From Gemmatimonadaceae bacterium (GTDB lineage Bacteria; Gemmatimonadota; Gemmatimonadetes; Gemmatimonadales; Gemmatimonadaceae), in NCBI GenBank assembly GCA_036274195.1, contig DASUGD010000178.1:1-61014 (forward strand): a stretch of 61,014 nucleotides of DNA. The letters are read 5' to 3'. Shown piece by piece: positions 3,627 to 57,162 of this stretch. The position numbers were made by a program, and so were the translations under genes. Positions within the stretch are counted from its first letter, which is position 1, and every line of letters begins with the position of its first letter. A model generated the notes under the pieces. It saw only the letters and a program-made list of their open reading frames with translations, was not told the origin of the DNA and ran no database searches.

Positions 3627-3647
3627 CCTAGCAAGAACAGGGCTTAT

Positions 3648-3793
3648 TTAACCACGGAGGTCACGGAGAAAACGAATTGAACCGCGGAGGACGCGGAGGC
3701 GCGGAGTGACCATTCCGACCGGCATCTCCGCGATCCTTTGCGTCCTCCGCGGTAAGAAAGCGTAATTGCTTTCTCCGTGACCTCCGTGGTAAA
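3648..3793. repeat. Nested inverted-repeat (hairpin) element between convergent genes
   Basis: Outer arms ttaaccacggaggtcacggagaaa / tttctccgtgacctccgtggtaaa, and inner arms accgcggaggacgc / gcgtcctccgcggt. Confidence 0.9.
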
Positions 3794-3803
3794 AAAACAA
3801 CTG

Positions 3804-4961
3804 TCACGGCCTCGACACCCCGTCGAGCGACTCCTGGTGGACCTTCCGAACCAGCGCCGAGACGAGTGACTTGAATCGCGGGTCGGACTCGGTCGCGTTA
3901 GGCGTGTACCGGCGCCCAATCGAGTCCATGTTCACCACGGCCTGGACCTCCGCCAGCGACACGAGGCCGCGCTCCAACGCCGCATGCACCTGGGCAATGA
4001 TCGACTCGAACAGGTCCCCCGTGAGCTGGAGATACGCCTTGTCGTGAAACGCGGGCCCCTGCCCCGGGACCACGATGGTCGCGTCCAGTCGCTCCAGCCC
4101 GCGAAGGCTGGTGAGCCACGGGGTGATCGCGTACGAGTTCGTCGTCCACGGGGGCGGTCCATTGCCTTCCTCCTGGGTGACGAGCGCATCGCCCATTACG
4201 AGGATCTTCTCCGCCGGCAGGTACAGCACCGTCGAGCCCGTGGCGTCGCCCGTCACGCTGATGAGCCGGAACTCGCGGCCACCGCTCCACAACACCAGCG
4301 AATCGTTGTAGGCGATCGTCGGCAGCACCCGTTTCACGTTCGCGACTTCTGCCGCAAACGCGGCAGTCTCGGCGATGTCCTTCTCGATCGTCCGGCGCGC
4401 CTCGGCCGTGAGCGGCGACCCGTCGCGCTGCTTCCCGGTTTGCACGGCCGTGTCGAGAGCCGCGCGCTGCCGGGCGACCTGTGTATTGAGGCCCTCGGCA
4501 AAGAATCGAGACCCCATGCGCTTCATGTAGTCGCGCGTCTCGGTCGTGGCGACGATCTGGAGTCCCGGGAACGCTTTCACATACTCGTCGTTCCCCGACC
4601 AGTGATCCTGATGCCAGTGCGAGTTGATCAGCGTTCGCACCGGTTTCGATGTGATCTTCCGGATCTCGGCGATCACCATCCGCGCGGTCCGAGCGCGCGT
4701 GTTGCTGTCGAAGACGGTGACGTCCTGGTCGTTGACGATCACGACGACGTTGGTGGCCGTCCACAGGTCTAGCGCGGAGGGTGCCCGGAAGAGGTAGATC
4801 CCGTCGCCAAGGGCCTCTTTCGTGAGCGAGGTATCCGGCGGCCCTTCGGCACACAGCGGACGCGCGGTGACGATGAGCCCCACGCACAGGGCAACCGAGT
4901 GGACGGCGGTGGCGACGATCTGGCGCGATGTCATGGCGAGGTTCGTTAGGTGAAACAGCAC
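3804..4961 (-). CDS. MBL-fold metallo-hydrolase, secreted
   Basis: 385 aa ORF. HWHQDHWSGN (HxHxDH) metallo-beta-lactamase fold motif. N-terminal hydrophobic signal. Confidence 0.85.
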   Translation of the reverse strand: MLFHLTNLAMTSRQIVATAVHSVALCVGLIVTARPLCAEGPPDTSLTKEALGDGIYLFRAPSALDLWTATNVVVIVNDQDVTVFDSNTRARTARMVIAEIRKITSKPVRTLINSHWHQDHWSGNDEYVKAFPGLQIVATTETRDYMKRMGSRFFAEGLNTQVARQRAALDTAVQTGKQRDGSPLTAEARRTIEKDIAETAAFAAEVANVKRVLPTIAYNDSLVLWSGGREFRLISVTGDATGSTVLYLPAEKILVMGDALVTQEEGNGPPPWTTNSYAITPWLTSLRGLERLDATIVVPGQGPAFHDKAYLQLTGDLFESIIAQVHAALERGLVSLAEVQAVVNMDSIGRRYTPNATESDPRFKSLVSALVRKVHQESLDGVSRP

Positions 4962-5148
4962 GGAGTGTCCAGAATTCGTCCCCGAGGCTCGGCGCGAAAA
5001 GGCGGCGTCCGCGAACCGTCACGAACCGCCCGTGAAGCGTCGGTTTCGCGTGCCGACTTGCCGGCGGCACGTCCGGCATCAATGTTCTACAGAGATGCGC
5101 CGGATGCTCGACGCGCAGGCTCTGTCCCGCGACCTAGTCGCTCATGCC

Positions 5149-5586
5149 ATGACCACGCACCTCTCGCGCATCACCTGCGCCGCCTGCCTCGTCCTGGCAG
5201 CTGCGGCTTCCGCGTGTCACAGGAATCGGCCACCGGACCCCGGCCCGGCCGTCACGCGCAAGGAGATCGAGGACAAGCAAGGCGAGCCGATCGACAAGCA
5301 GATCCAGTCGAAGTCCTCGGGCGTCGTCGTCACCCAGACGCCCGACGGCGGCATCGCCGTCAACATTCGCGGCAGCTCGTCACAACTGGCGAGCAATCAA
5401 CCGCTGTATGTCATCGACGACATTCCGATCACCCCGGGTCCGGGCGGCGCGCTCGTGGGGATCAACCCCCACGACATCGAATCGATCGCGGTGTTGAAGA
5501 ATCCCGAGGACACGGCCATCTACGGCTCCCGGGGCGGGAACGGCGTCATCGTCATCAAGACGAAGCGGCCGGGGAAGCGTCCCTGA
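5149..5586 (+). CDS. Standalone TonB-dependent-receptor plug-domain lipoprotein
   Basis: Start trimmed to internal Met (MTTHLSRITCAACLVLAAAASAC, lipobox). Plug-like sequence GVVVTQTPDGG...IRGSSS...PLYVIDDIPI...IESIAVLKNPEDTAIYGSRGGNGVIVIKTKR. Confidence 0.75.
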   Translation: MTTHLSRITCAACLVLAAAASACHRNRPPDPGPAVTRKEIEDKQGEPIDKQIQSKSSGVVVTQTPDGGIAVNIRGSSSQLASNQPLYVIDDIPITPGPGGALVGINPHDIESIAVLKNPEDTAIYGSRGGNGVIVIKTKRPGKRP

Positions 5587-5702
5587 CGAGCCAGGTCACA
5601 GCGGCGGCCGCTCGATCGATTCTCCGGCATCGCGTTAGGTTAGATCGTGAACGCAGCGCTTGACGAGGGAGCCGCCGGCCTCCAAGTAGTAGGTTCCCTC
5701 AA

Positions 5703-6968
5703 ATGAGCGCGATGGCAACACCGACCGCAGCGCCCGTCGCCCCAGGGGCCGAGCAGCCTTCTGCTTCCCTCAACGGACCGCCGCGCGAGCCGGCGGTCCC
5801 GGTCGCTTACAGCTCGGAAACAGGTCGCACGTACCGGCTCGACCGGCTCATCGGCAAGGGAGGATTCGGCGAGGTCTACCTCGCCACGCCGATCCCACGC
5901 GACGGGCTCCCCGAACAGGTCTGCGTCAAGGTCAGCGACCGCCTTTCCGCGTGGCTTCGCGAGGCGTACTTCGCGGAACTGCTCGCGCGTGAGCCCCGCG
6001 CGCTCAAGGTGTACGACAGGTTCGCCGAGCTCGAGGGTCAGAAGATGCGGTACTGCCTGGCGATGGAGTACGCTCAGCACGGCGATCTCGGAGCGTGGCT
6101 CGCCAAGAAGGGCGCGGTCCCCGAACGAATCGTGCGCAGGGAGATCGCCGCGATCCTGAACGCGCTGAATGCCCTGCACAAGGGACAGGCCCTGCACCGC
6201 GATCTCACGCCATTCAACGTGTTCGTGTGCGAGGACGAGCAGCTCAAGCTCGGCGACTTCGGTATCGCGACCCATCAGCTGAGTCGCCGCGGTGTCACGG
6301 CCGACGCGTTCAACATGTTCAACGCGCCGACGGAGATCGCGTGGGGCAAGGTGCGACGCTGGCAGCAGCGCGACGACATCTTCCAGGTGGGACAGATCGC
6401 GGCGATGCTGTTGCGCGGCGACGTCACGAGCCCGATGCGCAGCAAGGATGTGCGCCGCCTGCCGTGCAGCGATCAATTGAAGGAGGTCATTCACCGCTGT
6501 CTTGGCGCGAGAGGGAAGCGCTACGAGGCGGCGGGTGAGCTGATCTCGGCACTGCGGCACCGGCCGGAGGAGGTGCGACCCGGTCGAAGCCGGGTCGCGA
6601 GCCTGGACGGCAAGCGGATCTCGATCACCGGCTTCCTGAGCCGCCCGCGCAGCGAAGCGATTGCCGCGGCGAGGAAGGCCGGCGCGACCTTTCAGTCGAA
6701 GCCGGGCCCATCGACCGACGTGCTGGTGCGAGGCAGACCTAACGCGCTGCAGATCGCCGGTACCGTGGGTGGTCTCAAGATCATGGAGATCCGGCGGCTC
6801 GCCGCGCGCGGACACCCGATCGCGGTGATTGGCGAGAAGCAGTTCTGGAAGCTCGTGGAACCCGCCTCGCGCTCCGCGGCGAGCTCGCGTCGCGGAAAGT
6901 CCAAGCCGGTGGGGCGCACAGCCCGCGCGAGCACCGGTCGGCGCGTGAGGGCGGAATCCCGGCGGTAA
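5703..6968 (+). CDS. Ser/Thr protein kinase with a C-terminal BRCT domain (atypical HRDLTPFN catalytic loop)
   Basis: GKGGFGEVY glycine loop, VCVKV, HRDLTPFNVFV, LGDFGIA. The C-terminal ~90 aa (GKRISITGFLSRPRSEAIAAARKAGATFQSKPGPSTDVLVRG...) resembles the BRCT domain of NAD-dependent DNA ligases. Confidence 0.85.
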   Translation: MSAMATPTAAPVAPGAEQPSASLNGPPREPAVPVAYSSETGRTYRLDRLIGKGGFGEVYLATPIPRDGLPEQVCVKVSDRLSAWLREAYFAELLAREPRALKVYDRFAELEGQKMRYCLAMEYAQHGDLGAWLAKKGAVPERIVRREIAAILNALNALHKGQALHRDLTPFNVFVCEDEQLKLGDFGIATHQLSRRGVTADAFNMFNAPTEIAWGKVRRWQQRDDIFQVGQIAAMLLRGDVTSPMRSKDVRRLPCSDQLKEVIHRCLGARGKRYEAAGELISALRHRPEEVRPGRSRVASLDGKRISITGFLSRPRSEAIAAARKAGATFQSKPGPSTDVLVRGRPNALQIAGTVGGLKIMEIRRLAARGHPIAVIGEKQFWKLVEPASRSAASSRRGKSKPVGRTARASTGRRVRAESRR

Positions 6969-6991
6969 CCCTACCCGCCGGGGTGCCTGCA

Positions 6992-8599
6992 TCATCGCGT
7001 TCCCTGCTCGCGCTGCCGCTCCGCCGCCGCCAGCCATTCGGCCATTCGCTGATCGTTCGCCCCGTACTGTGCCCAGCCGCGTGCCGTGCAGTTCCAGCGA
7101 TAGTCTTTGATCGACATGTCGATGCCGCGATCGATGAGGTACTGCATCGACGGGTAGTTGTCGTGGAACACAAGCTCGTGCAGGATGCTGGCCGGCTCGT
7201 GCGAGCTCCACGTCGTGTTGATGTCCGCGCCACGCTCCAACAGGAAATCGGCCACGTCGAAGTGGCGGTTGATGACGGCGAAGGCGAACGCCGAGTCGAG
7301 AATGCGTTGCGCATTCGGCGCGCCGGGCGGGAGCTCGTTCCGCGCCTGTGGGAGGTTGTACGGATAGTGGTGCTCGAGATCGCCCAGCACCGACGCTCCG
7401 GATGGATCGAACCAGCGCTGCACGCTCGTCAGGTCTCCGGTGCCCGCCGCGTGTGGCAGGTCGTCCGGCAACGGCCAGATACGGGTGAGCAGGGGAAGCA
7501 GGTGCGGCTTCTCGTAGGTCAGTGCGAACTCGATTGCCTGCGATGGCGGCGGCGGGTGGCGCCGACCTAACGCGGGGTCGAGGTCGAGCAGGGCGACGAT
7601 GAGCTCACCGCGATCGCGCATGACGGCGCGCTCGATCATCCCCACCTGAAATCCCACGTGATCGTCGTCGAGCAGCCACCGGTCGTGCTGCAACCCGGTC
7701 ACGAACCCCGCGAGTTCGCCATCCGCGATCGCGCGCAGGACCTGCTCCATGACGAACACCTGCCACGGCCCGGTCGGGTTGGCGTGCGAGAAGGCGAGCG
7801 AGCGTCGGTCGATGAGGTACCGAATGAAGTCACGGCGACCGACGCCCGCATCCACGTTCTGGCCAAGCTGTGCGTCGAGTGCAATGGCGCGGTCGAGCAG
7901 CACCGACGCAACTGCTTCATGCTGGAAGCTGCACGCGCACAGGAACGCGTCGTTGACCTCGGCGAGATCGTGCCGGTTGTGGCCGAGCGAGGACCGGACC
8001 GCGTCGAGATCGCCGAGCGCGGCGGAGTACTCGAGCGTGTCGGGCAGGAGGCTCTTGCGCCGAAACAGCTGCAGCAGTCCCCGGGCGCGGGAGGCAACGA
8101 CGCTCTCGGGCACGGATGGCAGCACGACCGCACCGGCATCGATCAGCACCTCCGCACATTCCGCGCGCGTGAAATCCCGCTCTCGCTGCGGATCGAAAGC
8201 GTCGCCATAGGCGCTCGCGGCGAATCCCAGCAGGCTCTGGTTGCCGTCAGTTCCCGTCCAGGAGAGCAGCTGCGGAAAGTCTCCCAGGAGCTTCGTTAGG
8301 CGCTCGACGTCATTGTCGTGGATGGCACGTCGCGCCTGGATCGCTGCCCATTCCAGCCCATTGCCGAGACGTTGGCTGACTTCGGCAATGAGATCGTGCC
8401 AGCCGTCGAAGCCGTATTCACGCGCGATCACGAGCTGCGCGTTGCGCTGTGTCAGCGGCAGGCGGACTTTCGGCAGCTGCGCTCGCACGCGGGTGACGGC
8501 GGCCGCGTCACCCGCTGCGACGTCGCGTGCAAGCTTCTTGGCCTGTTTGCGGAGGGACTCGAGCGACGGACGCTCGGGGAGGGACTTGGACGCGGTCAT
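6992..8599 (-). CDS. Ankyrin-repeat domain protein
   Basis: 535 aa ORF with no competing frame. Repeated LIDAGA.. and LLERGADIN ankyrin-like units. Confidence 0.7.
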   Translation of the reverse strand: MTASKSLPERPSLESLRKQAKKLARDVAAGDAAAVTRVRAQLPKVRLPLTQRNAQLVIAREYGFDGWHDLIAEVSQRLGNGLEWAAIQARRAIHDNDVERLTKLLGDFPQLLSWTGTDGNQSLLGFAASAYGDAFDPQRERDFTRAECAEVLIDAGAVVLPSVPESVVASRARGLLQLFRRKSLLPDTLEYSAALGDLDAVRSSLGHNRHDLAEVNDAFLCACSFQHEAVASVLLDRAIALDAQLGQNVDAGVGRRDFIRYLIDRRSLAFSHANPTGPWQVFVMEQVLRAIADGELAGFVTGLQHDRWLLDDDHVGFQVGMIERAVMRDRGELIVALLDLDPALGRRHPPPPSQAIEFALTYEKPHLLPLLTRIWPLPDDLPHAAGTGDLTSVQRWFDPSGASVLGDLEHHYPYNLPQARNELPPGAPNAQRILDSAFAFAVINRHFDVADFLLERGADINTTWSSHEPASILHELVFHDNYPSMQYLIDRGIDMSIKDYRWNCTARGWAQYGANDQRMAEWLAAAERQREQGTR

Positions 8600-9056
8600 T
8601 GCTACCTCCTTTCATGATCGCCTGTATCCCGCTGAAGACCAGGCTGAAAGAAGGTGCATGCGCACGCTATTCAGACCGAAACAGGTGGGAGTGTTCCCTT
8701 GCCGCGGGTAGGAGGCGCCCTGTCAGCGCTCTGCCAGCAGTATCGAGAGACGCCGCTTCGGTGTCAACGGTGTCCCAGTGCGCACGGAGCAAATTTGCGA
8801 ACATCGGTGGAATCGATGTTCGAAATCTGCGTTAGGTCTTGCCGTTGCCGTTCCGATGGTCGGAATCCATTACTGTTCGGAATGGCAACAACAGCGGCAC
8901 ATCGCTGCCTATTGGGGATTCAGCACCGCCAGATGAGCGCGCCGCCAACGCGCTGCGCATCGACCTGCACCGGCGGTTCCTCGGAGTGTGAAAGCCAGCC
9001 CATGGCTTTCGCGGGTGGCCACCGAGTGCGAGAATAACTTCTGCAACGACTGACTT

Positions 9057-9647
9057 GTGGAGGCCACCGTGAAGAAGATCCAGGTTCAGGGCGTTCACCA
9101 CACCACCATCGTGGGATCCACAAAACAGAGCGCGATCGACTTCTGGTCCGGCGTGCTCGGCATGCCATTCGTGCTCGAGCAACCGAACCTCGGCAAGCCC
9201 GACGAGAATCACCTCTACTTCGATCCGGGCGATGGACGGCTGCTCACGGTCTTCACCAACGAGGGCCGCAACGATGCCCGACGTCCGGCACCGCGAGAGG
9301 TCGGGTGCGTGGAGCACCTCGCGTTCAACGTCTCGCGCGCCACGTTCACGCTCGTACCAGGGCGCCTGCGCGAACGCGGCATCGAGTTCATCCAGCGCGA
9401 CCGCGGCTTCATGGACTCGATCTACCTGCAGGACCCGAACGGACTCAAGGTCGAGCTCGCGTGCTACAAGTTCGAGACGCCCGAGGGCTTTCGCGACGTC
9501 GATGTGCTGATGACCGCGCAGCGGCTGCGCGTCGAGCGGGGCGATCACCACATCACCGAAGAGCACCTTGCCGACGCGATCGAGTCTCTGTTGTCGACAC
9601 GCGACCGGCTCGATCCCGCCGAAACGCCGGAACCGGCGGTACGTTAG
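9057..9647 (+). CDS. VOC family protein (glyoxalase/bleomycin-resistance/dioxygenase fold)
   Basis: 196 aa. HHTTIVG...FW..VLGM..V and a second half-domain EHLAFNV..., typical of the duplicated beta-alpha-beta-beta-beta VOC fold. Confidence 0.8.
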   Translation: MEATVKKIQVQGVHHTTIVGSTKQSAIDFWSGVLGMPFVLEQPNLGKPDENHLYFDPGDGRLLTVFTNEGRNDARRPAPREVGCVEHLAFNVSRATFTLVPGRLRERGIEFIQRDRGFMDSIYLQDPNGLKVELACYKFETPEGFRDVDVLMTAQRLRVERGDHHITEEHLADAIESLLSTRDRLDPAETPEPAVR

Positions 9648-9648
9648 G

Positions 9649-9840
9649 CAGGGATGAGGGATGAGGGATGAGGGATGAGGGATGAGGGATGAGGGATGAG
9701 GGATGGGGGATGGGGGAAGAGGGAAGAGGCTTAACGGCGGAACCTTAGGGATGCTCAACTCGTGCGGAGCGGCATCCGGAGGGTTCTCGCCTTCTACCCC
9801 CATCCCTCATCCCTCATCCCTCATCCCCCATCCCTCTTCC
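9649..9840. repeat. Inverted heptamer-array element (GGGATGA)n ... (TCATCCC)n
   Basis: About 7 tandem gggatga copies at 9651-9700 and about 3 tcatccc copies at 9797-9835 flanking an ~80 nt spacer. Intergenic between the VOC and RidA genes. Confidence 0.9.
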
Positions 9841-9898
9841 TTGACTTCGAGCACGCTCTAACTCGTAGCATGACTCCCTACCCCAGAGGAGTCATGCC

Positions 9899-10297
9899 AT
9901 GCCAACGTCCACCATTCAGCGCATCAACCCACCAACCCTTCCCACGCCACCGGGCTACAGCCAGATCGCCGTGGCATCCGGCGGCTCTTTGATCGTCATC
10001 GCCGGCCAGGTCGCGCTGGACAAACAGGGCCAGGTCGTCGGGCTCGGGGACTTCGCGTCGCAAGCGACGCAGGTGTTCCGTAACCTCATCGCCGCGCTCG
10101 ACGCCGCCGGCGCCAACCCGCGCCACCTCGTCAAGCTCACCACGTTCGTGACCGATCTCTCCCACCTTCCGGCCTTTCGTCAGGTTCGCGACCAGTTCCT
10201 GGATGCGGAGCACCCACCGGCGAGCACGCTGTTGCAGGTGTCGCGGCTCTTTCGGCCGGAATTCCTCCTTGAAGTCGAAGCAATGGCCTATCGATGA
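9899..10297 (+). CDS. RidA/YjgF/L-PSP family reactive-intermediate deaminase
   Basis: 132 aa. PPGYSQIAVASGGSLIVIAGQVALD...HLVKLTTFVTDL...LQVSRL matches the RidA family pattern. Confidence 0.9.
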   Translation: MPTSTIQRINPPTLPTPPGYSQIAVASGGSLIVIAGQVALDKQGQVVGLGDFASQATQVFRNLIAALDAAGANPRHLVKLTTFVTDLSHLPAFRQVRDQFLDAEHPPASTLLQVSRLFRPEFLLEVEAMAYR

Positions 10298-10677
10298 CGA
10301 TCACCGAGCTTGCCGGCGCCACGGGCGTGTCGAAGCACACGCTGCGCTACTACGAGCGAGTAGGGCTCGTCCCACTCGTCGACCGCGATCCCTCGAGCCG
10401 CCATCGCCGCTACAGCGACGGCCACATCCGGTGGATCGAATTTCTCCGCGACCTTCGCGCGTGTGGCATGCCCATCCGGGAGATTCGCGCGTACGCGCGA
10501 CTCGTGGCCAAGGGCGACAGCACCTGGGCTGCGCGCCAGGCGATGCTGGCCACGCATCGCAGCCACGTCGTGGCGACCATTGCCGCGCTGCAGCGGCACC
10601 GCGCGCTGCTCGACAGAAAGCTCCGCGCCGGCTGTGCCCCCGGTGACCTGAAGCCCAAACACGACTCGGCCCGTTAG
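10294..10677 (+). CDS. MerR family transcriptional regulator
   Basis: 127 aa. N-terminal HTH ITELAGATGVSKHTLRYYERVGL. ATGA overlap with the upstream RidA gene. Confidence 0.9.
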   Translation: MTITELAGATGVSKHTLRYYERVGLVPLVDRDPSSRHRRYSDGHIRWIEFLRDLRACGMPIREIRAYARLVAKGDSTWAARQAMLATHRSHVVATIAALQRHRALLDRKLRAGCAPGDLKPKHDSAR

Positions 10678-10707
10678 GCATCGCAGGGCAGCAATGCCTA
10701 ACGGGCC
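10668..10707. terminator. Hairpin built from an inverted pair of the CGTTAGGC motif; contains the MerR gene stop codon
   Basis: ggcccgttaggcat-cgcagggcagca-atgcctaacgggcc: a 14-bp perfect stem between convergent genes. No U-tract follows, so intrinsic-terminator function is uncertain. Confidence 0.6.
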
Positions 10708-10766
10708 GAGGTCGAGCGTGGCCAGCGCGGGAGGTCGGCTGACCATTGCTCGACGATCTATGACCG

Positions 10767-11360
10767 CTACTGCGCGTTCGCGCAGCTTACCTTGGGGTTC
10801 CACAACCCGAACATGCCGCTCGGGTTCGGGCGCCATCCCCAGATGTGCAGCGCCCACACGTTGAGCGGCGGGCCGAGCGCCGTGAACGGCTGACCGAGCA
10901 GCGTCGGTGCCGTCGCCGACAACGAGAGCGGGACGATGTAGTCCACGCCCACGAGGTTCATCTGGCCGTTCGGGCCAGGCTCGTACATCACGAGCTCGGG
11001 ACGCAGGAGCTCCACGTTCGCGTCCACGAGGTCGGGGTTGAGGTAGTGGAACCCTTGTGCACCATCCGGCGACGCCGCACAGCCGACCGGGAACTGCTGG
11101 GTGTACCCTCCGCCGCCTTGGGACGTCGGACGCGTTGCGATCGCGATGTCGTGGAATCGCTGCGTCACTTGCTTCACTTGCGCGATGGCCTGCTTCTGAG
11201 CGGGCGTCAGCTCACCGTTGTTGAAGGTGCGAGCCATGCCCGCATGAAGGGCGTGAGCAGTGGGCACCTGGGCGGCCGTAGGGGGTGCCTCCGGCGTTGG
11301 GGAACATGCCGCGGTCAGGGTGACCGCAGTGACTGCGAGGAACAGGTGGCGCTGGCGCAT
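10767..11360 (-). CDS. Hypothetical lipoprotein
   Basis: Start trimmed to MRQRHLFLAVTAVTLTAAC (lipobox), which removes the overlap with the divergent sigma gene. No recognisable domain. Confidence 0.65.
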   Translation of the reverse strand: MRQRHLFLAVTAVTLTAACSPTPEAPPTAAQVPTAHALHAGMARTFNNGELTPAQKQAIAQVKQVTQRFHDIAIATRPTSQGGGGYTQQFPVGCAASPDGAQGFHYLNPDLVDANVELLRPELVMYEPGPNGQMNLVGVDYIVPLSLSATAPTLLGQPFTALGPPLNVWALHIWGWRPNPSGMFGLWNPKVSCANAQ

Positions 11361-11568
11361 GTCGAGCTCCGGGGTTGTGGGCCGAGAGTACCACGAGAGC
11401 GAGGGGGCCATCCGTAGAAGCCGAAAACTCCGCCGAACCGGCTCATCGATCCGGCTCATCGCCCGCCACCCGACCTTGCCTGGCCGTCAAGCCGGCCCGT
11501 ATGATCTTCGCGCACCCGCCTTCCTGTCGCGCAACCACACCCAGCGCGCCGGAGCGCCCGGAGGCCCG

Positions 11569-12152
11569 ATGGCTCCCTCGCACGAGAACACCCCCACCCC
11601 GCCCGACGATGACCAATCGGCCTCGCTCGCAGGGCCGAGCGAGGCCGGAAAGGAATTGGACGACGTCTTCCCGGCGGTCTATGAGGAGCTCAAGCGGGTC
11701 GCGCACCGGCATCTGCGCGGCGAGCGAACGGAGCACACGCTGGGCACGACGGCTCTCGTGCACGAGGCCTACCTCGAGCTCGCCAAGCTCGACAACGTCC
11801 GCTGGCCGGGACGTCCGTACATGCTCGCCGCGGCGTCCAAGGCCATGCGGCGGATCCTGATCGACTACGCGGTCGCGCGGCGCGCGCAGAAGCGCGGTGG
11901 CGGCGCCGAGGCCGACCCTCTGGACGATGCGGTCGCCATGGCGGTGTCGCGCGGCGACGAGCTGTTGGCGCTCGACGAAGCGCTCGAGCGCCTCGCCGCG
12001 GTCAACGAACGATACGGCCGCGTGGTCGAGTGCCGGTTCTACGGCGGCATGAGCGTCGAGGAGACGGCGGAGGCGTTAGGCACGTCACCGGCCACGGTGA
12101 AGCGCGACTGGACCATGGCGCGCGCGTGGCTCAACCGCGAGCTCGGCGACGG

Positions 12153-12156
<4 letters not shown>
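11569..12156 (+). CDS. ECF-type RNA polymerase sigma factor (TIGR02999/ECF43-like)
   Basis: Start trimmed to MAPSHEN. Region 2 ELDDVFPAVYEELKRVAHRHL...ALVHEAYLEL, region 4 RVVECRFYGGMSVEETAEALGTSPATVKRDW. Stop overlaps the start of the downstream kinase (ATGA). Confidence 0.85.
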
Positions 12157-13193
<1,037 letters not shown>

Positions 13194-13209
13194 TCGTTAG
13201 CCTTTAGTC

Positions 13210-14214
13210 TTGAGCTACCGACTACCGACTATCGACTCACAGCTTCACATGGTATCGCTCGATCAGGCATCCGAGTCGGATTCGTCGCTCCTGTCGAATC
13301 TCGTGGAGCTGTACATCCACGACATGAGCGAGGTGTTCCCTCATGTCCAGCTCGGGCCGGACGGCCGGTTCGGTTACTCGCGGTTGCCGCTCTACTGGTC
13401 CGAGCCGGATCGTCGGTTCGCGTTTCTCATTCGCTGCGACGGCAAGATCGGCGGCTTCATTCTGGTGACGCGCGGTTCGCCTGCCGAGACCGACCCGAAC
13501 GTCCTCGACGTGGCCGAGTTCTTCGTCCTTCGCCAGTACCGCCGCGCCGGGACGGGACGTGAGGCGGCAGCTCTGCTTTGGAATCGCCTCCACGGCAGGT
13601 GGATCGTGCGCGTGCTCGAGAAGAACGCCCCCGCACTGGCGTTCTGGCGCGAGACGATTGCAACGTTCACGGGCAGACGATTCGACGAGCGGCGGCTGAC
13701 CACCGGGCCTAACGACTGGCGGGTGCTCTCCTTCGACAGCGGGCTACAGACGCCCGGCGCCAGCTCTGACCTTGCAACCCATCATGGCCATCTGACGCCG
13801 GGGATGAGGCACTCGATCGCTCACGTCGCCCTCCTGGTTCGCGACTACGACGAAGCCATTGCGTTCTACACGCAGAAGGTCGGCTTCACGCTCGTCGAGG
13901 ACACGTACCAGCCAGAGCAGGACAAGCGATGGGTCGTCGTGGCGCCCGCGGGGTCCAGCGGCACCACGCTGCTGCTCGCCCGGGCCTCCACGCCCGAGCA
14001 GGCCCAATTCATTGGCGATCAAGCAGGCGGACGCGTGTTCCTGTTCCTGAGAACCGACGACTTCTGGCGTGACTATAACCGGATGACCGCCGCCGGTGTC
14101 CGGTTCGTCCGACCACCTAACGTGGCGGCGTATGGTACGGTGGCGGTATTCGAGGACCTGTACGGGAATCGATGGGACTTGATCGAGCACGACGCCGCAT
14201 CGCCACACGTCTGA
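13210..14214 (+). CDS. Fusion protein: N-terminal GNAT-like acetyltransferase domain plus C-terminal VOC/glyoxalase domain
   Basis: 334 aa. N-terminal half has an acetyltransferase-like fold (FLIRCDGKIGGFILV...EFFVLRQYRRAGTG). C-terminal half has VOC motifs (IAHVALLVRDYDEAIAFY..LGF). Start may be the internal ATG near 13249. Confidence 0.7.
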   Translation: MSYRLPTIDSQLHMVSLDQASESDSSLLSNLVELYIHDMSEVFPHVQLGPDGRFGYSRLPLYWSEPDRRFAFLIRCDGKIGGFILVTRGSPAETDPNVLDVAEFFVLRQYRRAGTGREAAALLWNRLHGRWIVRVLEKNAPALAFWRETIATFTGRRFDERRLTTGPNDWRVLSFDSGLQTPGASSDLATHHGHLTPGMRHSIAHVALLVRDYDEAIAFYTQKVGFTLVEDTYQPEQDKRWVVVAPAGSSGTTLLLARASTPEQAQFIGDQAGGRVFLFLRTDDFWRDYNRMTAAGVRFVRPPNVAAYGTVAVFEDLYGNRWDLIEHDAASPHV

Positions 14215-14315
14215 CACGTTCGTGACCCACTCGACTTGGCGAAACGCTGCGCGGTCTCGTAGCGTAGATCGATGGTGTTCCACCCCATGCACACGCGAGC
14301 CCATGTGAGACGTCG

Positions 14316-16608: not shown

Positions 16609-16618
16609 TGGCACGATT

Positions 16619-16655
16619 GACGGCAGACCGTAGAGAACTGCAGTTCTCTGCCGTC
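16619..16655. terminator. Palindromic hairpin between convergent flotillin and PQQ-dehydrogenase genes
   Basis: gacggcaga(ccgta)gagaactgc|gcagttctctgccgtc. Shares the gacggcagagaactgcag unit with the element at 29103-29270. Confidence 0.6.
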
Positions 16656-16657
16656 TC

Positions 16658-18832: not shown

Positions 18833-18954
18833 GGTCGGTCGCGGAGGGGATGCGGGCGAATATGGGACGGCCACCTGCCAAGTCGCAACGTCGGTTGCGG
18901 CGTTCAGGCCCCGCGCTAACTTCGCGTCATCCCCTTCAAGTTCCCGGAGAGCCA

Positions 18955-22595: not shown

Positions 22596-22597
22596 GT

Positions 22598-29270: not shown

Positions 29271-29292
29271 GCGTGGCCTTTGATACGCGGGC

Positions 29293-32060: not shown

Positions 32061-32075
32061 AGGAGACGTGCCGTG
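32061..32075 (+). promoter_or_regulatory. ileS: Shine-Dalgarno AGGAG plus GTG start of ileS
   Basis: aggagacgtgccGTG: the in-frame GTG is 7-8 nt downstream of AGGAG. Confidence 0.6.
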
Positions 32076-40165: not shown

Positions 40166-40176
40166 GAGGCCAGCCC

Positions 40177-46968: not shown

Positions 46969-47099
46969 CGAATTAGCGCTCGCAGGACCTCCTCGCGGGG
47001 CTGGCTATCAGGGCTGGCTTCTACGACGAAGGGGTTCGGATACTCCGGATGCCACGGATGCGTCGGATCGCTCCCCGACCGGCCTAACGTCGTACCACA

Positions 47100-47260
47100 A
47101 CGAGCCGGGTCTTTTGAGGAACGACCTCGGGACGTGCTGGCTTCCCGAGGTCGTCATTTCTTCAATAACGACTCGTGGTGAGCGGAGTTCTCACGGCCGA
47201 GGAGCGATCTGAAGCATCCGAGGCATCCGCTGCATCCGAACACCCCTTCGTCTGTGCGGC
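47100..47260. repeat. Approximately 150-bp structured repeat, copy 2 (MITE-like)
   Basis: Same blocks as 40010-40165. Lies between convergent genes. Confidence 0.85.
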
Positions 47261-47295
47261 CGGCCCTCTCGGGTCCGGACAGTCGGCGTCGGTGC

Positions 47296-48087
47296 CTAAC
47301 GAGCGAACAACTGCGCGTCGAGCAGTGCCCCGGTCCACGGACGCAGCCACACCGTACCGTTCCAGGCGTGCGCCAGATAGCGGTTGACCAAGTCCATCTC
47401 CGCGCTCGTGTACTGGCTCTTGTGACACGCGAACTCCTCCCGTCCCGCGGCGAGGTCGCGGTCCTCGAACGGGACGCGCACGGTCAGCAGAGCCTCCGTC
47501 ATCCCGTTCACCGTGGGTGACGCCTTGGGCGCGGTCTCCAGCCGCTCCGCGGGCAGCGACGCGTAGAGTAGATCGACGCCCGCGTAGCGCGCGTCGGCCT
47601 GAATGATCTGCGTGACCACATCGCCCACGAGACGATGGTCGGGATGGCCTGTCCCTCCCTCCGGACCGAAGGTGATGATCGCGGCGGGCCTGATCGAGTC
47701 GATGATCGGCACGAGTGCCGACCGCAGCTTGCCGAGCTCGTCGAACGCCGCGAGCCCGCCGTCCGGGAGACCGAGGAGGTGCAGCTTCTTCACGCCGAGA
47801 CGATCGGCCGCGCACGTCGCTTCCTTCGTTCGCGCCGCGGCGAGCGCCGCTCCGGCCGGGATCCTCGCGAAGTCGCGCGTACCCTTCGAGCCATCGGTCG
47901 CGATCACGAGATGCGTCTCGCGCCCTTCCCTCGCGAGGCGTGACAGCAGCGGACCGATCACTCGTTCGTCGTCGGGATGGGCGAAGATGGCGAGGATGGG
48001 CCGGCTTCCCTGAGCCGGCAACGTGCGCGGAAACCCCGTCACCACAAGGGCCAGCGCGACGACGTAGGGAAATGTGTGAGATCGCAT
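47296..48087 (-). CDS. PIG-L/LmbE family deacetylase
   Basis: Start trimmed to MRSHTFPYVVALALVV. AHPDDE motif (ILAIFAHPDDERVIG) and GGTGHPDHRLVGDV. Confidence 0.85.
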   Translation of the reverse strand: MRSHTFPYVVALALVVTGFPRTLPAQGSRPILAIFAHPDDERVIGPLLSRLAREGRETHLVIATDGSKGTRDFARIPAGAALAAARTKEATCAADRLGVKKLHLLGLPDGGLAAFDELGKLRSALVPIIDSIRPAAIITFGPEGGTGHPDHRLVGDVVTQIIQADARYAGVDLLYASLPAERLETAPKASPTVNGMTEALLTVRVPFEDRDLAAGREEFACHKSQYTSAEMDLVNRYLAHAWNGTVWLRPWTGALLDAQLFAR

Positions 48088-50414: not shown

Positions 50415-50700
50415 AGCTTTCAAACGGCGCAAGACCGAAGAGCGCTGAATTCCGAAGAGCGCAAGGCGAAGAGCGCGAAATCCCGAACTACGCGAAATCC
50501 CGAACTGCGCGAAATCCCGAACTACGCGAAATCCCGAGGAGCGGAACACCCACCGGCGAAAACGGCGCGCGCTCTTTTCGCCCTTAGAGGTTCCGCTCTT
50601 CGGGATTCAGCGATCTTCGGGATTTCGCGCTCTTCGGAATTCAGCGCCCTTCGGGATTCAGCGTCCTTCGGCTTGCGCCGTTCGGCTTGCGCCGTTAGGC
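50415..50700. repeat. Complex tandem and inverted repeat element
   Basis: cgcgaaatcccgaact(a/g) repeated 4 times (50483-50540). Inverted partners cttcgggattcagcg / cttcgggatttcgcg repeated at 50590-50670. Terminal direct repeat cggcttgcgccgtt x2. Confidence 0.9.
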
Positions 50701-50710: not shown

Positions 50711-51310
50711 CTACTGGTGGTAGAAGTAGTAGTCTGCCGTGTATGGTGACTTGAATTCCTGGCCCACGACGGTCCCCGGTGTGGTTGGCGCAAGGCCGCC
50801 CACGGTGTTCAGTCGCTGGATGAACGTCGTCTGGTTGAAGACGCCCTTTCCACTGTTGTCCGCGGAAAGCTTCACCCAGTCGATCGCGTTGGTGTTCACG
50901 GTGCAGCGATCGGTGAGCGTGCCGATGACTCGGCTGCCGCTCACGGTCAGCCAGTTCGGCTTGGCGCCCGGCGCGCTGAAGTGCGTGCCGACCAGCGCGT
51001 TTTGGCCGGCGTCGGCGAACAGGTTCGCCTCCGGGTTCGAGAAGACCCACTTCGTGCCATCCCAACGGTAGACCTGAAAGCCCACACCGAATGCGTGGAA
51101 CGAGATGTTGCTGCCCTCCGGCACCTGAAGCTGCGTGCAGCCGGCCAGGTCTGGAAACCGACCGGAAACTCCCTGGACGTCGTACGTGCTGCGCGTCGCG
51201 GATTTCGGTCCGACGGGGGCGTTATCGGCGCAACCGATGGCGAAGCCCGCGGCCGCAACAATGGCCAGCGAGTACCCGAAGGTGTGTGATGTCCTGATTC
51301 TCATTTGCAT
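50711..51310 (-). CDS. Hypothetical lipoprotein (paralog of 35574..36143)
   Basis: Start trimmed to MQMRIRTSHTFGYSLAIVAAAGFAIGC. Conserved blocks shared with the 35574 gene. Confidence 0.7.
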   Translation of the reverse strand: MQMRIRTSHTFGYSLAIVAAAGFAIGCADNAPVGPKSATRSTYDVQGVSGRFPDLAGCTQLQVPEGSNISFHAFGVGFQVYRWDGTKWVFSNPEANLFADAGQNALVGTHFSAPGAKPNWLTVSGSRVIGTLTDRCTVNTNAIDWVKLSADNSGKGVFNQTTFIQRLNTVGGLAPTTPGTVVGQEFKSPYTADYYFYHQ

Positions 51311-51532
51311 TCTCCCAAGGCTGGCGCGCGAGGACGCGCCGGTGATTCGCGTCGATGGCGTGAATGCCATCACCGGGGAGAACGCGGGGTAACATCAAAG
51401 GCGGACAGCACTTGCCACTCGACAGGGGGCAGCCCTAACGATAGACAGGGGTCAGGCCTGACTCCTGGTTGGTCTCACCGTCGCCGCCTCGACACAATCG
51501 AGGCACGATCCGATGCCGCTACTCGTCACGCA

Positions 51533-55127: not shown

Positions 55128-55173
55128 GTGACACCTTACTTCTCTCGTCCCACAGCCGCCAGAGTGACACCTC

Positions 55174-56298
55174 ATGCGTCGACGTGATTTCGCCAAGCTC
55201 GCCGGAATAGCCGCAGTCGCGCCGCGAACGCTGGTTCGCGCACACAGTGAGCCGACTGGGATCGCGCGCGAAGGCGCGATCTGGCCGGGTTACGAGCGCG
55301 CCATTGCCATCGACTGCCTGGCGAGCCCCGGTCCGTTCAACACTCCCGGATCCACCGACAACCCGCTCACACCGGAGATGGTCGCGAACGCGAAGGCGTC
55401 AGGCATCACCGCCGTGAACCTGACCGTGAGCGCCAACACGTTCGCGGACACGTTCCGTACGATGGCGTACTGGGAGAACGAGCTGCAGGCGCATCCCGAT
55501 GTCCTGATGAAGGTCTATTCGCTCGCGGACATCCGCCGTGCGAAGGAGACCCGCCGGCTTGGGCTCATCTACGGGTTCCAGAACGCGACGATGCTCGAGG
55601 GCAACGTGACAAACCTCGACCACTTCCAGCGATTTGGCGTCCGTATCATCCAGCTCACGTATAACGACCGCAACATCCTCGGCGACGGCTGTCTCGAGCC
55701 GGCCAACGCGGGACTGAGCCGCTACGGACGCGACGTCGTTGCGCGCATGAACGAGCTTCGCATGGTGGTCGACCTGAGTCACTGCGGGCTCCAGACGACA
55801 TCCGATGGCATCGCCGCGTCCACTCGGCCGGTCGCGATCACGCACAGCGGTTGCCGAGGCGTGTTCGACCATCCGCGCAGCAAGACAGACGACATCCTGC
55901 GCGCCCTCGCGAACAAGGGCGGCGTGATCGGCATCTACATGATGCCATTCATCAACGCGCAGGGTCAGCCGGTCGCCGCGGATCTCGTCAGGCAGATCGA
56001 GTACGCCGTCAACGTGTGTGGCGAGGACCACGTCGGGATCGGCAGTGACCTCTCGATCACGCCGCACGTGGTGGATGCGGAGTACGAGGCGCGGCACCGC
56101 CGATTCGTCGAGGCCCGCAAGCAGCGTGGAATCGCCGCGCCGCGCGAGGAGGACTTCATGTTCGTCAAGGACCTCAACACACCGCGTCGGCTCGAGCAGA
56201 TCGCGGATCAACTCCTCGCGCGCAAGCACTCGCCGGCGCGCGTCGAGAAGATCATTGGCGGGAACTGGATGCGGCTGTTCGGCGAGGTCTGGGGCTGA
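55174..56298 (+). CDS. M19 family membrane dipeptidase (renal dipeptidase-like), Tat signal
   Basis: MRRRDFAKLAGIAAVA, then VVDLSHCG and AITHSGCRGV motifs of peptidase M19. Confidence 0.85.
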   Translation: MRRRDFAKLAGIAAVAPRTLVRAHSEPTGIAREGAIWPGYERAIAIDCLASPGPFNTPGSTDNPLTPEMVANAKASGITAVNLTVSANTFADTFRTMAYWENELQAHPDVLMKVYSLADIRRAKETRRLGLIYGFQNATMLEGNVTNLDHFQRFGVRIIQLTYNDRNILGDGCLEPANAGLSRYGRDVVARMNELRMVVDLSHCGLQTTSDGIAASTRPVAITHSGCRGVFDHPRSKTDDILRALANKGGVIGIYMMPFINAQGQPVAADLVRQIEYAVNVCGEDHVGIGSDLSITPHVVDAEYEARHRRFVEARKQRGIAAPREEDFMFVKDLNTPRRLEQIADQLLARKHSPARVEKIIGGNWMRLFGEVWG

Positions 56299-56762
56299 TG
56301 GACCGTCAGCGCGTCGGGCTTCGGCACGTCGCGAGCATTCCGGTCGCGGTCGTTCGCCGCCGCGCGAGCGCTGCTCGGCTGTCGACGCTCGTTCCCGAGT
56401 GCTGCGGCGTAGTGTGGCGCGCGGTGCAGGCGCAGAAGGAAACGGGCGCACAGGGTGGTCGCCACGTGGCGATCTACTGGGACGGGGACATTCGCCTCGA
56501 GGTTGGCGTGGAGTTGCAGGGCCCGTTCGCGGAGACGGGCGAGGTGGTTCGTTCCGCGACGCCCGCCGGGCCGGCTGCCTTTGTCACACACGTTGGACCT
56601 TACCATACGCTGGCCGCGGCGCACGATGCAGTCCGCCAGTGGTGTGAGGCGAACGGCTACCGCCTCGCTGGCCCGAGCTGGGAGATCTACGGGCACTGGC
56701 AGCCGGAGTGGGACGCGGATCCGCGGTTGATTCGCACGGACGTGTTCTACCAGATCGGCTAG
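56298..56762 (+). CDS. GyrI-like small-molecule-binding domain protein
   Basis: 154 aa. VGPYHTLAAAHDAVRQWCEANGY...WEIYGH, typical GyrI-like/AraC-effector-binding fold. Overlaps the upstream stop. Confidence 0.75.
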   Translation: MDRQRVGLRHVASIPVAVVRRRASAARLSTLVPECCGVVWRAVQAQKETGAQGGRHVAIYWDGDIRLEVGVELQGPFAETGEVVRSATPAGPAAFVTHVGPYHTLAAAHDAVRQWCEANGYRLAGPSWEIYGHWQPEWDADPRLIRTDVFYQIG

Positions 56763-56859
56763 CGGATCGGGCGGGAAGGATAGCTGACGGGTTGTTGGTG
56801 TCTGACAGAAATGGCGACGGACACGTCCCGCGTCGCGCCAGTCCGGCATCGCGTTAGGG

Positions 56860-57130
56860 ACGGTTGAAAGATGAGGAATCGCAGAACGCTTGAGAACGGC
56901 GCTTCGCGCCGCCGCAGAACGACACAGGAGACTGCTCGGCACCTCTGCCGCCGCGCGCAACGAGCCCGTTTTGAAGGGGAACAACCCCGGGACGCCAGTA
57001 TTCGCGTCCCGGGGCAGTTCACAAAGAAAACTGGCGCGTTGCGAGAGGAGCCCGGCTCCGCAGGCGGAGCGCTTCTGCGGCCTTCTGCGGCGCCCGCGCC
57101 AGCGGGCGTTCTCGAGCGTTCTGCGGTCCC
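56860..57130. repeat. Structured intergenic region with inverted ccgcagaa / ttctgcgg repeats
   Basis: gccgccgcagaacgaca ... cttctgcggccttctgcggcgcc ... gcgttctgcgg. Lies between convergent genes. Confidence 0.7.
56985..57014. terminator. Perfect 11-bp hairpin ccccgggacgc-cagtattc-gcgtcccgggg
   Basis: Palindrome downstream of the GyrI-like gene and 3-prime of the convergent permease gene. No clear U-tract. Confidence 0.5.
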
Positions 57131-57162
57131 TCGTTATTGATCGTACGTGACCCGAGGCGAGC

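Follow-up and report, generated by a model that had tools for sequence, protein, structure and literature searches.

What are the large hairpins that fill the spaces between genes in contig DASUGD010000178.1, how did they come about, and what might they do for the genes beside them? The contig (61,014 nt, 66% G+C; hereafter the window, that is, the whole stretch of DNA analyzed) is a complete contig from an uncultured soil member of the Gemmatimonadaceae with ordinary chromosomal genes. A reading of its letters alone (the sequence-only reading) had listed ten intergenic palindromes as inverted arrays of tandem 7-mers, and had likened them to a family of repetitive extragenic palindromic (REP) sequences or MITEs (miniature inverted-repeat transposable elements) that may act as terminators, mRNA stabilizers, or recombination sites. 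On balance, and with confidence slightly better than even, we read them as terminator-type 3′ hairpins inflated by slippage and by exchange between their arms, to which a dispersed family resembling REPs and bacterial interspersed mosaic elements (BIMEs) is added.

Coding sequence makes up ∼91% of the window, and the genes recognized with Pfam include ileS, trpS, TonB-dependent receptors, Ser/Thr kinases, an ECF (extracytoplasmic function) sigma factor, a PQQ (pyrroloquinoline quinone) dehydrogenase, and MacB/FtsX permeases; neither tRNA nor tmRNA genes were detected in it. The top relatives of the TonB-dependent receptor are encoded in metagenome-assembled genomes (MAGs) of Gemmatimonadaceae (72-73% amino-acid identity). 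Genes were mapped from the G+C content of third codon positions (GC3), Pfam matches, and gene calls on strain contigs. Intergenic regions are named by their start (3627, 9648, 22596, 29013, 35226, 46969, 50398, and 56763; 39697 designates a decayed site). L-numbered loci are related contigs; strain contigs with 100% identical flanking proteins are treated as the same population, and L228 and L229 represent a sister species (∼85% DNA identity) syntenic with window positions 4944-19780.

Intergenic regions fold into long hairpins built from tandem units

Tandem Repeats Finder (TRF) reported arrays at every site that had been listed, and the 25 longest inverted repeats of the window, all 25 of them, sit in the eight intergenic regions named above (39697 not counted). 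In a fold scan over all intergenic regions, which used only 20 mononucleotide shuffles per region, these eight yielded rod-like hairpins of 120-355 nt with z-scores from -5.0 to -15.5. The elements at 9648, 29013, and 35226 were also folded against dinucleotide-preserving shuffles (200 shuffles at 9648), and the z-scores were again strongly negative (9648-9850, -11.8; 29090-29280, -13.5; 35226-35580, -12.7, the last as DNA); no shuffled sequence folded as well as the real one in any of the three. Entire convergent gaps fold as one rod each, such as the 355 nt that separate ileS from a DUF3455 gene, and in sum the elements amount to ∼2.2 kb, which is ∼40% of the noncoding DNA of the window. As the elements at 29013 and 56763 were recovered, matching, in 6-10 independent metagenome assemblies, the hairpins are not assembly artefacts. 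Structure prediction, which had been proposed as a check, thus supports eight regions and is confirmed for three of them by the dinucleotide-preserving shuffles. The arrays and hairpins of the earlier list are real, except that the entry at 16619 is a plain palindrome (z = -2.1) and that at 40010 a decayed copy (z = 0.0 for its intergenic region as a whole).

In a typical element, arms of tandem units enclose a unique inner stem-loop, and the purest units are usually those farthest out, adjoining the genes (9648, 35226, and 29013). Tandem 7-mers had been named as the building unit, which holds for about half of the elements: 7-mer units occur only at 9648, 22596, 35226, and 13181-13237, and partly at 29013, whereas the others are composed of 9-mers (3627 and 46969), 10-mers (parts of 35226 and 56763), or 17-mers (29013 and 50398). 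Period-7 arrays were reported by TRF at 536, 9650, 9797, 13171, 13215, 22597, 22685, 29120, 35229, and 35522. Complementary 7-mer arrays in convergent orientation constitute the inverted-repeat pairs I2, I11, I21, and I25, and four pairs in the window pass a strict test for paired inverted arrays based on the TRF consensus. The two arms of an element carry unequal copy numbers, as had been noticed before (e.g., 11.4 vs 6.3 units at 9648), and their unit variants do not follow each other in mirrored order; both features fit independent slippage in complementary arms, without the need for a copying step.

In nine elements of the window the 5′ arm is purine-rich, and in none is it pyrimidine-rich. 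Outside the window the counts conflict: among paired-array units read by eye, ∼9 had the purine-rich and 2 the pyrimidine-rich arm on the left, whereas a BLAST-based inverted-repeat detector, applied to mostly Acidobacteriota loci, returned 3 and 7, respectively. A purine-rich 5′ arm as a universal rule is, thus, not upheld.

Little sequence is held in common. The elements at 16619 and 29013 share 25 nt at 100% identity, which bears out the earlier claim of a unit common to positions 16619 and 29103, and GGCGACT arrays are common to 536-587 and the element at 35226. Copies elsewhere in ∼2 Mb of related loci were found by BLAST only for the 46969 family; for the units of the other elements there were none. 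Rfam 15 gave no match at gathering thresholds, and at relaxed thresholds only sub-threshold matches of long hairpins to eukaryotic miRNA-precursor models. The density of the arrays is as unusual as had been supposed, with 16.4 period-7 arrays per 100 kb in the window versus 3.3 in other Gemmatimonadota loci and 7.1 in mostly Acidobacteriota loci. For strictly paired inverted arrays, the corresponding values are 6.6, 0, and 2.9 per 100 kb; that none was found in 181 kb of other Gemmatimonadota loci means that their distribution is patchy.

The hairpins lie at the 3′ ends of genes

Of the 18 intergenic regions into which a gene 3′ end falls, 8 have a hairpin with z ≤ -5, compared with none of the seven divergent ones (one-sided hypergeometric p = 0.04), and each of the seven convergent gaps holds a hairpin of some kind. 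Every large hairpin is situated downstream of a gene, its ends mostly 0-30 nt from the upstream stop codon, the exception being the left side of the 56763 element (∼100 nt). Within co-directional gaps, it is the upstream gene that the hairpin hugs; the elements at 29013 and 50398, for instance, end 10-22 nt from the stop codon of the upstream minus-strand gene.

The most telling comparison comes from the TonB-dependent receptor gene. In eight other Gemmatimonadota (L006, L008, L011, L013, L014, L015, L017, and L025), the stop codon of its ortholog is directly followed by a plain GC hairpin of ∼10-17 bp without a T tract, and the GGGGACT hairpin of the window occupies the same position. This positional equivalence is the main reason why the elements are read as enlarged terminator-type hairpins. 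They are GC-rich stem-loops directly 3′ of genes, just past the stop codon, as intrinsic terminators are, and in convergent gaps they are symmetric and would be usable from both strands. Intrinsic terminators include stem-loops lacking a U tract, which have been described in high-GC bacteria. Sites combining a hairpin with a T run were not in excess in the window (29 found vs ∼29 expected from shuffles), and the sole T-rich tail 3′ of a stem (GTTCATTCTCAA) follows the inner hairpin of the dispersed family. Of the proposal that the elements act as terminators or mRNA stabilizers, the part concerning placement therefore fits, whereas enrichment of hairpin-plus-T-run sites was not observed.

Copy number, loop orientation, and presence vary among strains and relatives

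If units slip, closely related strains should be the place to see it, and at 9648 they do differ: in strain contig L082, the array is one unit shorter than in the window (11 vs 12 units) and carries unit substitutions. The imperfect array at 29013, in contrast, kept its copy number in 10 independent assemblies, which differ by single bases at two sites only; ongoing slippage, which had been deduced from the unequal arms, is thus evident for the purest array but not for this one. In strain contig L084, the right arm of the 9648 element is kept and the left arm rebuilt, with four extra CCCTCGT units and a different upstream gene. This switch of the upstream gene places a rearrangement breakpoint inside the GGGATGA hairpin, beside an over-represented motif described below. 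L084 (965-1047 vs window 9648-9797) is 100% identical to the window from the GGGATGA right arm onward, and both upstream genes end in GCGTTAGGC.

The element at 56763 is conserved across assemblies, except for the 8-nt loop (57000-57007) of its central hairpin (56989-57018). In L087 (1270-1277) and L091, the loop sequence CAGTATTC is changed to its exact reverse complement, GAATACTG, with the stems left as they are. A flip-flop inversion polymorphism is, in other words, present in a single population, and it is direct evidence for exchange between the arms. Comparable loop inversions occur in chloroplast hairpins and through template switching at quasipalindromes.

Comparison of orthologous intergenic regions, also proposed earlier as a check, showed that the 190-nt GGGATGA element is absent from the sister species: L228 and L229 have 30 unrelated nt in its place, the gap between the glyoxalase and RidA genes measures 92 nt, and neither a target-site duplication nor a direct repeat was found at the junctions when the filled and the empty site were compared. 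In the convergent gap after the MerR gene (10665-10710), hairpin modules differ among the window, L228, and L229. A 2.8-kb segment (13870-16648), comprising the glyoxalase-domain end of a 321-aa protein and a 763-aa Band_7/SPFH gene, is absent from L228, and its right junction is the palindrome at 16619-16655. Two structural-variant breakpoints hence coincide with hairpins, in agreement with the suggestion that the elements may act as recombination sites. Four short-read contigs (L081, L083, L085, and L086; k141 prefix) begin or end inside heptamer arrays, which indicates that the elements fragment metagenome assemblies and are under-counted in surveys of MAGs. Conversely, their copy numbers and loop flips can serve as high-resolution strain markers, and the elements mark breakpoints of structural variation.

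How the hairpins may have arisen and what they may do

The preferred account starts from ordinary GC-rich terminator-type stem-loops just after stop codons, which would have been enlarged to imperfect palindromes of 120-355 nt. As the arms of a stem are already complementary, a unit of 7, 9, 10, or 17 nt could slip and multiply separately in each of them, leaving inverted arrays of a locus-specific unit, one per arm and unequal in copy number, with the purest, presumably youngest, units outermost. Sequence has also passed from arm to arm, as the flipped loop shows, and would have done so by template switching or recombination. Superimposed on this is a dispersed, BIME-like mosaic element with alternating A and A′ arms and two alternating centers, which spreads between loci. 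The hairpin would form in the transcript from either strand and would either halt or pause RNA polymerase with no need of a U tract or act as a barrier to 3′-to-5′ exonucleases, thereby insulating neighboring and convergent genes. Repeat-built arms may pair in many registers, and the stem could, thus, close wherever in the distal arm the polymerase is. This account is well supported for anatomy, position, and evolution; its functional part is inferred. If the hairpins do terminate or stabilize transcripts, they would show how high-GC soil phyla without canonical terminators end transcripts, and would improve the prediction of operons and 3′-UTRs (untranslated regions) in MAGs.

Several points weigh against it. 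To begin with, termination or stabilization is something that we infer purely. The account leaves the preference for 7-nt units and the purine-rich 5′ arm unexplained. The large stems are not followed by a U tract, and at 3627 and in the core of 56763, a T run precedes the stem and an A run follows it, on both strands; compared with usual intrinsic terminators, the stems are, moreover, 5-10 times longer and built from repeats, and their activity as such is putative. In only three of four co-directional cases does the sense strand give the better fold of the two, which is not decisive as a test of selection at the RNA or the DNA level. RNA stems of 40-170 bp are expected to be substrates of RNase III. 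One pure array (536-587) lies unpaired in a promoter-side gap, and at the 9648 site the sister species has just a 7-bp stem in its 92-nt gap, which means that a large hairpin is not needed there. Lastly, the positional bias could mirror only where such DNA is tolerated.

That last point leads to a serious rival, namely, that the elements are nonfunctional by-products of a lineage-specific mutational bias, in which errors of slippage and palindrome replication inflate stems that persist only where they are harmless. It is given weight by the sister species, which does without the large hairpin, and by the patchy distribution in general (181 kb of other Gemmatimonadota loci and the orthologous site of the sister contain none). 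The wide variation in units, lengths, and copy numbers, the decay of some copies (e.g., 39697, z = 0), the gain or loss of whole hairpin modules among L228, L229, and the window, and the finding of no regulatory role in a study of similar arrays in Xanthomonas (PMC4692102) point in the same direction. By-products, however, would be free to lie anywhere in non-promoter spacer, whereas the elements abut stop codons and replace the plain hairpins of eight relatives. Although long palindromes are expected to be unstable, the arms stay complementary over 100-350 nt; the dispersed family has retained its inner stem, in which one change is compensatory, and the elements at 29013 and 56763 are stable in 6-10 assemblies. 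We consider the by-product explanation possible, but distinctly less probable than an origin from terminator-type hairpins.

A dispersed subfamily resembles BIMEs

One set of elements does recur at many loci. The gaps at 46969 and 39697 have ∼170 nt in common, to which the core of 56763 is related; the common part comprises an inner hairpin (GACCTCGGGA...TCCCGAGGTC) with T-rich flanks, an arm of GCATCCG units, and AACACCCCKTCGTCTG. The best-preserved copy, 47009-47266 (inverted repeat I7; z = -10.1), is larger than the 47100-47260 first reported, although the element itself exists as described. It consists of an A arm (CTACGACGAAGGGGTTC and four CGGATGCNN units), an inner hairpin B (47094-47189) with a T-rich tail, and an A′ arm (GCATCCGNN units and AACACCCCTTCGTCTG). 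The copy at 39925-40176 is decayed, and the intergenic region at 39697 that contains it has a z-score of 0.0 as a whole; its left arm is degenerate, and of the palindrome formerly placed at 40010-40165 only two parts survive, the inner hairpin (40027-40065; GACCTCGGGAAG...CTTCCCGAGGTC) and the right arm with its GCATCCG units. The gap also contains a gene remnant (39761-39877, in 39697-39880), which is a Sde0182_C-like fragment after a LamB porin gene. The third relative, 56863-57135 (inverted repeats I14 and I16; z = -8.3), is flanked by the converging genes for a GyrI-like protein (56298-56762, +) and a MacB/FtsX permease (57163-59736, -); it is the core (56958-57050) that shows kinship with the B module.

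When JGI metagenomes were scanned with a 15-mer from the GCATCCG arm, most matches were due to chance, and BLAST then singled out the homologues (L135, L140, L152, L167, L169, L173, L177, L182, L187, L197, and L212). Except for L177, which holds an ortholog of the 39697 copy without the inner module, the genes flanking these copies are not orthologous to those of the window. Taken together, the window has two or three copies and at least ten metagenome contigs carry others, some in permuted or tandem module order at non-orthologous loci, and the sister species has one in a divergent gap where the window has none. In L212, L187, L169, L182, and L167, the module order is B-A′-center2-A-B, a circular permutation of the A-B-A′ of the window, with a second center (GGCCGGCCC...GGGCTGGC) alternating with the B hairpin. 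The inner stem is conserved, and one pair has changed in a compensatory manner (U-A to C-G in three of seven copies). A covariance model of the inner B hairpin (R1) scored 39925-40176 at 69 bits, a copy that is itself included in the model alignment, and, applied to 0.7 Mb, brought up no additional copies. Most copies carry CTACGACG, a CGTC-GTAG motif, where arm A ends on its outer side; GTAG also heads the 17-mer and the GTAGTCG units, and is absent from 3627, 9648, 22596, and 50398 (chance expectation ∼2 per element). No consistent target-site duplication surrounds the family copies.

REPs and BIMEs of Enterobacteria and Pseudomonas, with their GTAG/CGTC-tagged REP superfamilies (PMC3733652), are likewise extragenic imperfect palindromes at gene 3′ ends and in convergent gaps, dispersed at many loci, and alternating in orientation with two alternating linkers; the order A-B-A′-center2-A-B of the 46969 family and its CGTC-GTAG motif at one end of arm A correspond to this, and the roles proposed for REPs are termination and protection of mRNA 3′ ends. 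In contrast, REPs are 20-40 nt long, highly conserved, and present in hundreds of copies, whereas the window elements are mostly unique, 120-355 nt long, and built from tandem units; most of them have no GTAG tag, and no gene for a REP-associated tyrosine transposase (RAYT) is among the window genes. The 46969/39697/56763-core subfamily is, thus, supported by its sequence as a genuine dispersed REP/BIME-like repeat that appears to work like a BIME, but its membership in the REP/BIME class is tentative, considering the inconsistent GTAG tag, the lack of a RAYT gene in the window, and the much greater length. The single REP/MITE-like family that had been proposed is upheld only for these dispersed elements; most others have locus-specific units and share nothing but the architecture.

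Could all elements nonetheless be mobile? They would then be non-autonomous units of the MITE or REP/BIME type, moved by a transposase or RAYT encoded elsewhere, and the tandem units would be part of their terminal repeats. The dispersed subfamily is what this explanation has in its favor, through its copies in at least ten metagenome contigs with differing flanking genes, the sister copy at a site where the window has none, the BIME topology of alternating arms and two alternating centers, and CTACGACG at the outer end of arm A, as is the sharing within the window (16619 with 29103, and 536 with 35226). Most elements, however, have locus-specific units without any copy in ∼2 Mb of related sequence, are far longer than REPs of 20-40 nt, and were not joined by further copies in the 0.7 Mb searched with R1. 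Pfam detected no transposase or RAYT gene among the ∼45 genes of the 61-kb window, and the junctions at 9648 show no target-site duplication relative to the empty site of the sister; together, this leaves a MITE reading unsupported. A single mobile family for all elements was rejected, as BLAST of each element against the ∼2 Mb found copies of the 46969 family only, and mobility as the general cause is unlikely.

Related architectures in other bacteria

Hairpins from inverted tandem arrays are of a kind already known, given the precedents in Xanthomonas (PMC4692102) and Geobacter (PMC2700814); novelty lies in the phylum, in how diverse the units are, and in their nested size. Closest to the window elements are the inverted pairs of GGGAATC heptamers known from Xanthomonas. 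In X. campestris and X. citri, there are 183-186 GGGAATC-type arrays per genome, of which 70-75 of ∼185 form convergent pairs, on average 28 nt from the upstream open reading frame (ORF), under-represented between divergent ORFs, and of varying length between species (Rehm et al, 2015; PMC4692102). Shared with the window are the tandem 7-nt units (2-26 copies there), their convergent, stem-forming pairs, the position near the upstream stop codon and far from the next ORF, the rarity between divergent ORFs, the variation in copy number and sequence between close species, and the G-rich array coming first on each strand. The window differs by its many locus-specific units (7, 9, 10, and 17 nt), most of which are not capable of forming G-quadruplexes, by its larger elements (up to 355 nt) nested round unique inner hairpins, some of them in a dispersed mosaic family, and by its host, which belongs to the Gemmatimonadota instead of the Gammaproteobacteria.

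In Geobacter metallireducens, sets of four or five tandem heptanucleotides (GGACCGG and MTYCTGA) occur at dozens of loci, mostly paired and drawn as looping back on the opposite strand (Aklujkar et al, 2009; PMC2700814). They were annotated there as putative regulator-binding sites, comprise few unit types genome-wide, and lie partly inside genes; that paper gives no analysis of where they lie with respect to gene 3′ ends. Cyanobacterial short tandemly repeated repetitive (STRR) heptamers, such as the GGGGA(C/T)T repeat of Nostoc, are also intergenic and variable in copy number, and GGGGACT is the unit at 22596, but mostly they are single direct arrays and not stem-forming pairs (PMC4692102).

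Strictly paired inverted arrays of 7- or 8-mers were further found in Acidobacteriota (L018, L032, L041, L047, L058, L060, L064, L078, and L079), in loci that had been gathered for another purpose and whose gene context stems from crude ORF calls. Where these calls allow judgement, inverted heptamer pairs abut stop codons in L018, L032, L041, L058, L060, and L079. In L041, L079, L018, L058, and L060, inverted pairs of heptamer or octamer arrays number several per 20 kb, many of them abutting stop codons (e.g., L041 9600-9819 and 16561-16613, and L079 5098-5174), and the same architecture was seen in Thermoanaerobaculia, Vicinamibacteria, and Acidobacteria gp7. The design, thus, occurs in at least four phyla, which raises the unsolved question of how transcripts are ended or protected, and why 7-nt units are favored. 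A sweeping answer would be that inverted tandem arrays after stop codons form a cross-phylum class of register-tolerant “zipper” hairpins, spanning Gemmatimonadota, Acidobacteriota, Xanthomonas, and Geobacter, which might be the main factor-independent, bidirectional module for termination or 3′-end protection where U-tract terminators are lacking, and might be continually rebuilt by a lineage-specific combination of heptamer-biased slippage and arm exchange. We regard this as improbable in such generality; if true, it would account for the long-noted excess of heptameric repeats in bacterial genomes (simple sequence repeats; Mrazek et al, 2007, as cited in PMC4692102).

The Geobacter annotation suggests a different role, in which the arrays are multisite platforms for a DNA- or RNA-binding protein, be it a global regulator, to which the paired sets of 4-5 tandem heptanucleotides were putatively assigned (PMC2700814), or a nucleoid- or gyrase-type factor as at the BIMEs of E. 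coli. Tandem identical units are typical of cooperative binding sites. However, with at least eight unrelated unit sequences and four unit lengths in 61 kb, there is no one sequence-specific protein that could read them all. Copy numbers also vary between arms and strains, and the sites avoid promoters; a protein platform is, thus, quite unlikely. Very improbable, and refuted as a general explanation for the window, is an action of G-rich arrays through G-quadruplexes (or i-motifs), as proposed for the GGGAATC repeats of Xanthomonas, where Rehm et al (2015) favored it while the function of the arrays “remains to be elucidated,” and for the Nostoc repeats: although consensus oligonucleotides of both form G-quadruplexes in vitro (PMC4692102), the unit at 22596 is identical to that of Nostoc, and the arms at 9648 (GGGATGA) and 22596 (GGGGACT) have at least four tracts of three or more G with short loops, a regular-expression scan found such runs in only 2 of ∼11 elements, GGCGACT, CGGATGC, ACGGAGGTC, GACGGCAGA, and both 17-mers have no such tract, and each G-rich arm faces a complementary C-rich arm, which favors the duplex.

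Individual elements of the window

Leaving aside the dispersed family, the elements fall into those that fill convergent gaps and those that follow a single gene. The former include the nested quasi-palindrome 3638-3803, flanked by genes for a PD40 beta-propeller protein (2115-3626, +) and a metallo-beta-lactamase (3804-4961, -). Its arms are composed of 8-9-nt units, ACGGAGGTC/ACGGAGAAA in the outer and 2.8 copies of CGCGGAGGA in the inner part, and it is defined by a TRF array (3683-3706), inverted repeat I22, and a minimum free energy of -100.4 kcal/mol (z = -13.2). The largest element, a 355-nt rod at 35226-35579 (z = -13.8 as RNA and -12.7 as DNA), fills the gap between ileS (31953-35225, +) and a DUF3455 gene (35574-36374, -), the stop codon of which is overlapped by the right arm. 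GGCGACT units are outermost, with degenerate CCGTCGC- and GCTGC-rich units inside; TRF reported 3.4 copies of CTGGCGA (35229-35252) versus an AGTCGCC-type array (35522-35574). At its center lies a nested 134-nt palindrome (35377-35510) with perfect 13-nt ends (GTCATTCCGAGCG/CGCTCGGAATGAC), which resembles a separate inserted element; the sole other match to GTCATTCCGAGCG in 230 loci was a chance one inside a coding region, and no other copy was found.

Two smaller hairpins in convergent gaps are without tandem units. The Band_7 and PQQ dehydrogenase genes converge on the one at 16619-16655, a simple palindrome of 37 nt, GACGGCAGACCGTAGAGAACTGCAGTTCTCTGCCGTC (z = -2.1). The other, after the MerR gene (10665-10710), was absent from the earlier list; it is a plain 20-bp hairpin, the stem of which is an inverted pair of an over-represented motif (CCCGTTAGGCAT/ATGCCTAACGGG).

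Among the elements following a single gene, the GGGATGA hairpin (9650-9840) starts 3 nt past the TAG stop of a glyoxalase gene (9057-9647, +) and has ∼12 units in the left and ∼6 in the right arm, around a unique inner hairpin (9737-9790); in terms of TRF arrays, 11.4 copies of AGGGATG (9650-9729) face 6.3 copies of CCCTCAT (9797-9840). The GGGGACT hairpin (22597-22720; z = -5.0) starts 1 nt past the TAG stop of the TonB-dependent receptor gene (19959-22595, +); 4.1 copies of TGGGGAC face 4.9 copies of AGTCCCC (22597-22718), and the inner stem is CTCGGCCAGGA/TCCCGGCCGAG. Downstream of a minus-strand gene (29293-30564) lies the hairpin 29097-29270 (z = -13.5 on the sense, i.e., minus, strand), the arms of which combine 7-mers of the GCAGACG type with 17-mers (GTAGAGAACTGCAGACN on the minus strand; 17-mer array at 29207-29264). 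The most stable one relative to shuffles, 50423-50700 (I1, with 117-nt arms; z = -15.5), follows the minus-strand DUF3455 gene 50711-51373 and is made of 17-mer arrays, 3.8 copies of CGCGAAATCCCGAACTA facing 4.6 copies of CGCTCTTCGGGATTCAG (50474-50537 and 50594-50671).

Two more arrays had not been listed before. At 13181-13237, (G/T)TAGTCG units face CGACTAC in a small hairpin that reaches across the end of a kinase gene (12153-13193, +) into the 55 nt separating it from the next one; TRF arrays (13171-13209 and 13215-13237) support it, but the fold is weak (z = -0.1 for the gap alone). At 536-587 (+), an array of 7.4 GGCGACT units lies in a divergent, promoter-side gap; as it is unpaired, arrays can exist without a partner.

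Further observations

A stand-alone Plug domain of 184 aa is encoded at 5032-5586 and looks like a truncated TonB-dependent receptor. Beside this fragment, a PadR gene and a MacB/FtsX permease gene are inserted in L229 of the sister species.

The most frequent octamer of the window is CGTTAGGC, with 49 occurrences versus 1.1 expected; for the heptamer CGTTAGG, there are 67 versus 3.1 expected. Sites include 9642-9649, 10672-10679, 10696-10703, 46963-46970, 47294-47301, and 50693-50700, and others are found in L003, L228, and L229. The octamer is about equally frequent on both strands, occurs inside genes in every stop-free frame, is ∼4-fold denser at gene ends, and supplies several stop codons. 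An inverted pair of it forms the hairpin at 10665-10710, and it is also present at the rearrangement junction of L084. In the sister species, it is conserved at 12 of 13 aligned sites, compared with ∼32% expected for a neutral 7-mer at 85% identity. Its abundance is specific to this lineage: the density is ∼10-17 per 10 kb in the window, L003, and L228, and 2-4 per 10 kb in L006 and L014; elsewhere it is essentially absent. A literature search combining Gemmatimonadetes with uptake-sequence terms returned no paper naming that phylum. By these features, CGTTAGGC looks like a DNA-uptake sequence or a motif of the HIP1 (highly iterated palindrome) type.

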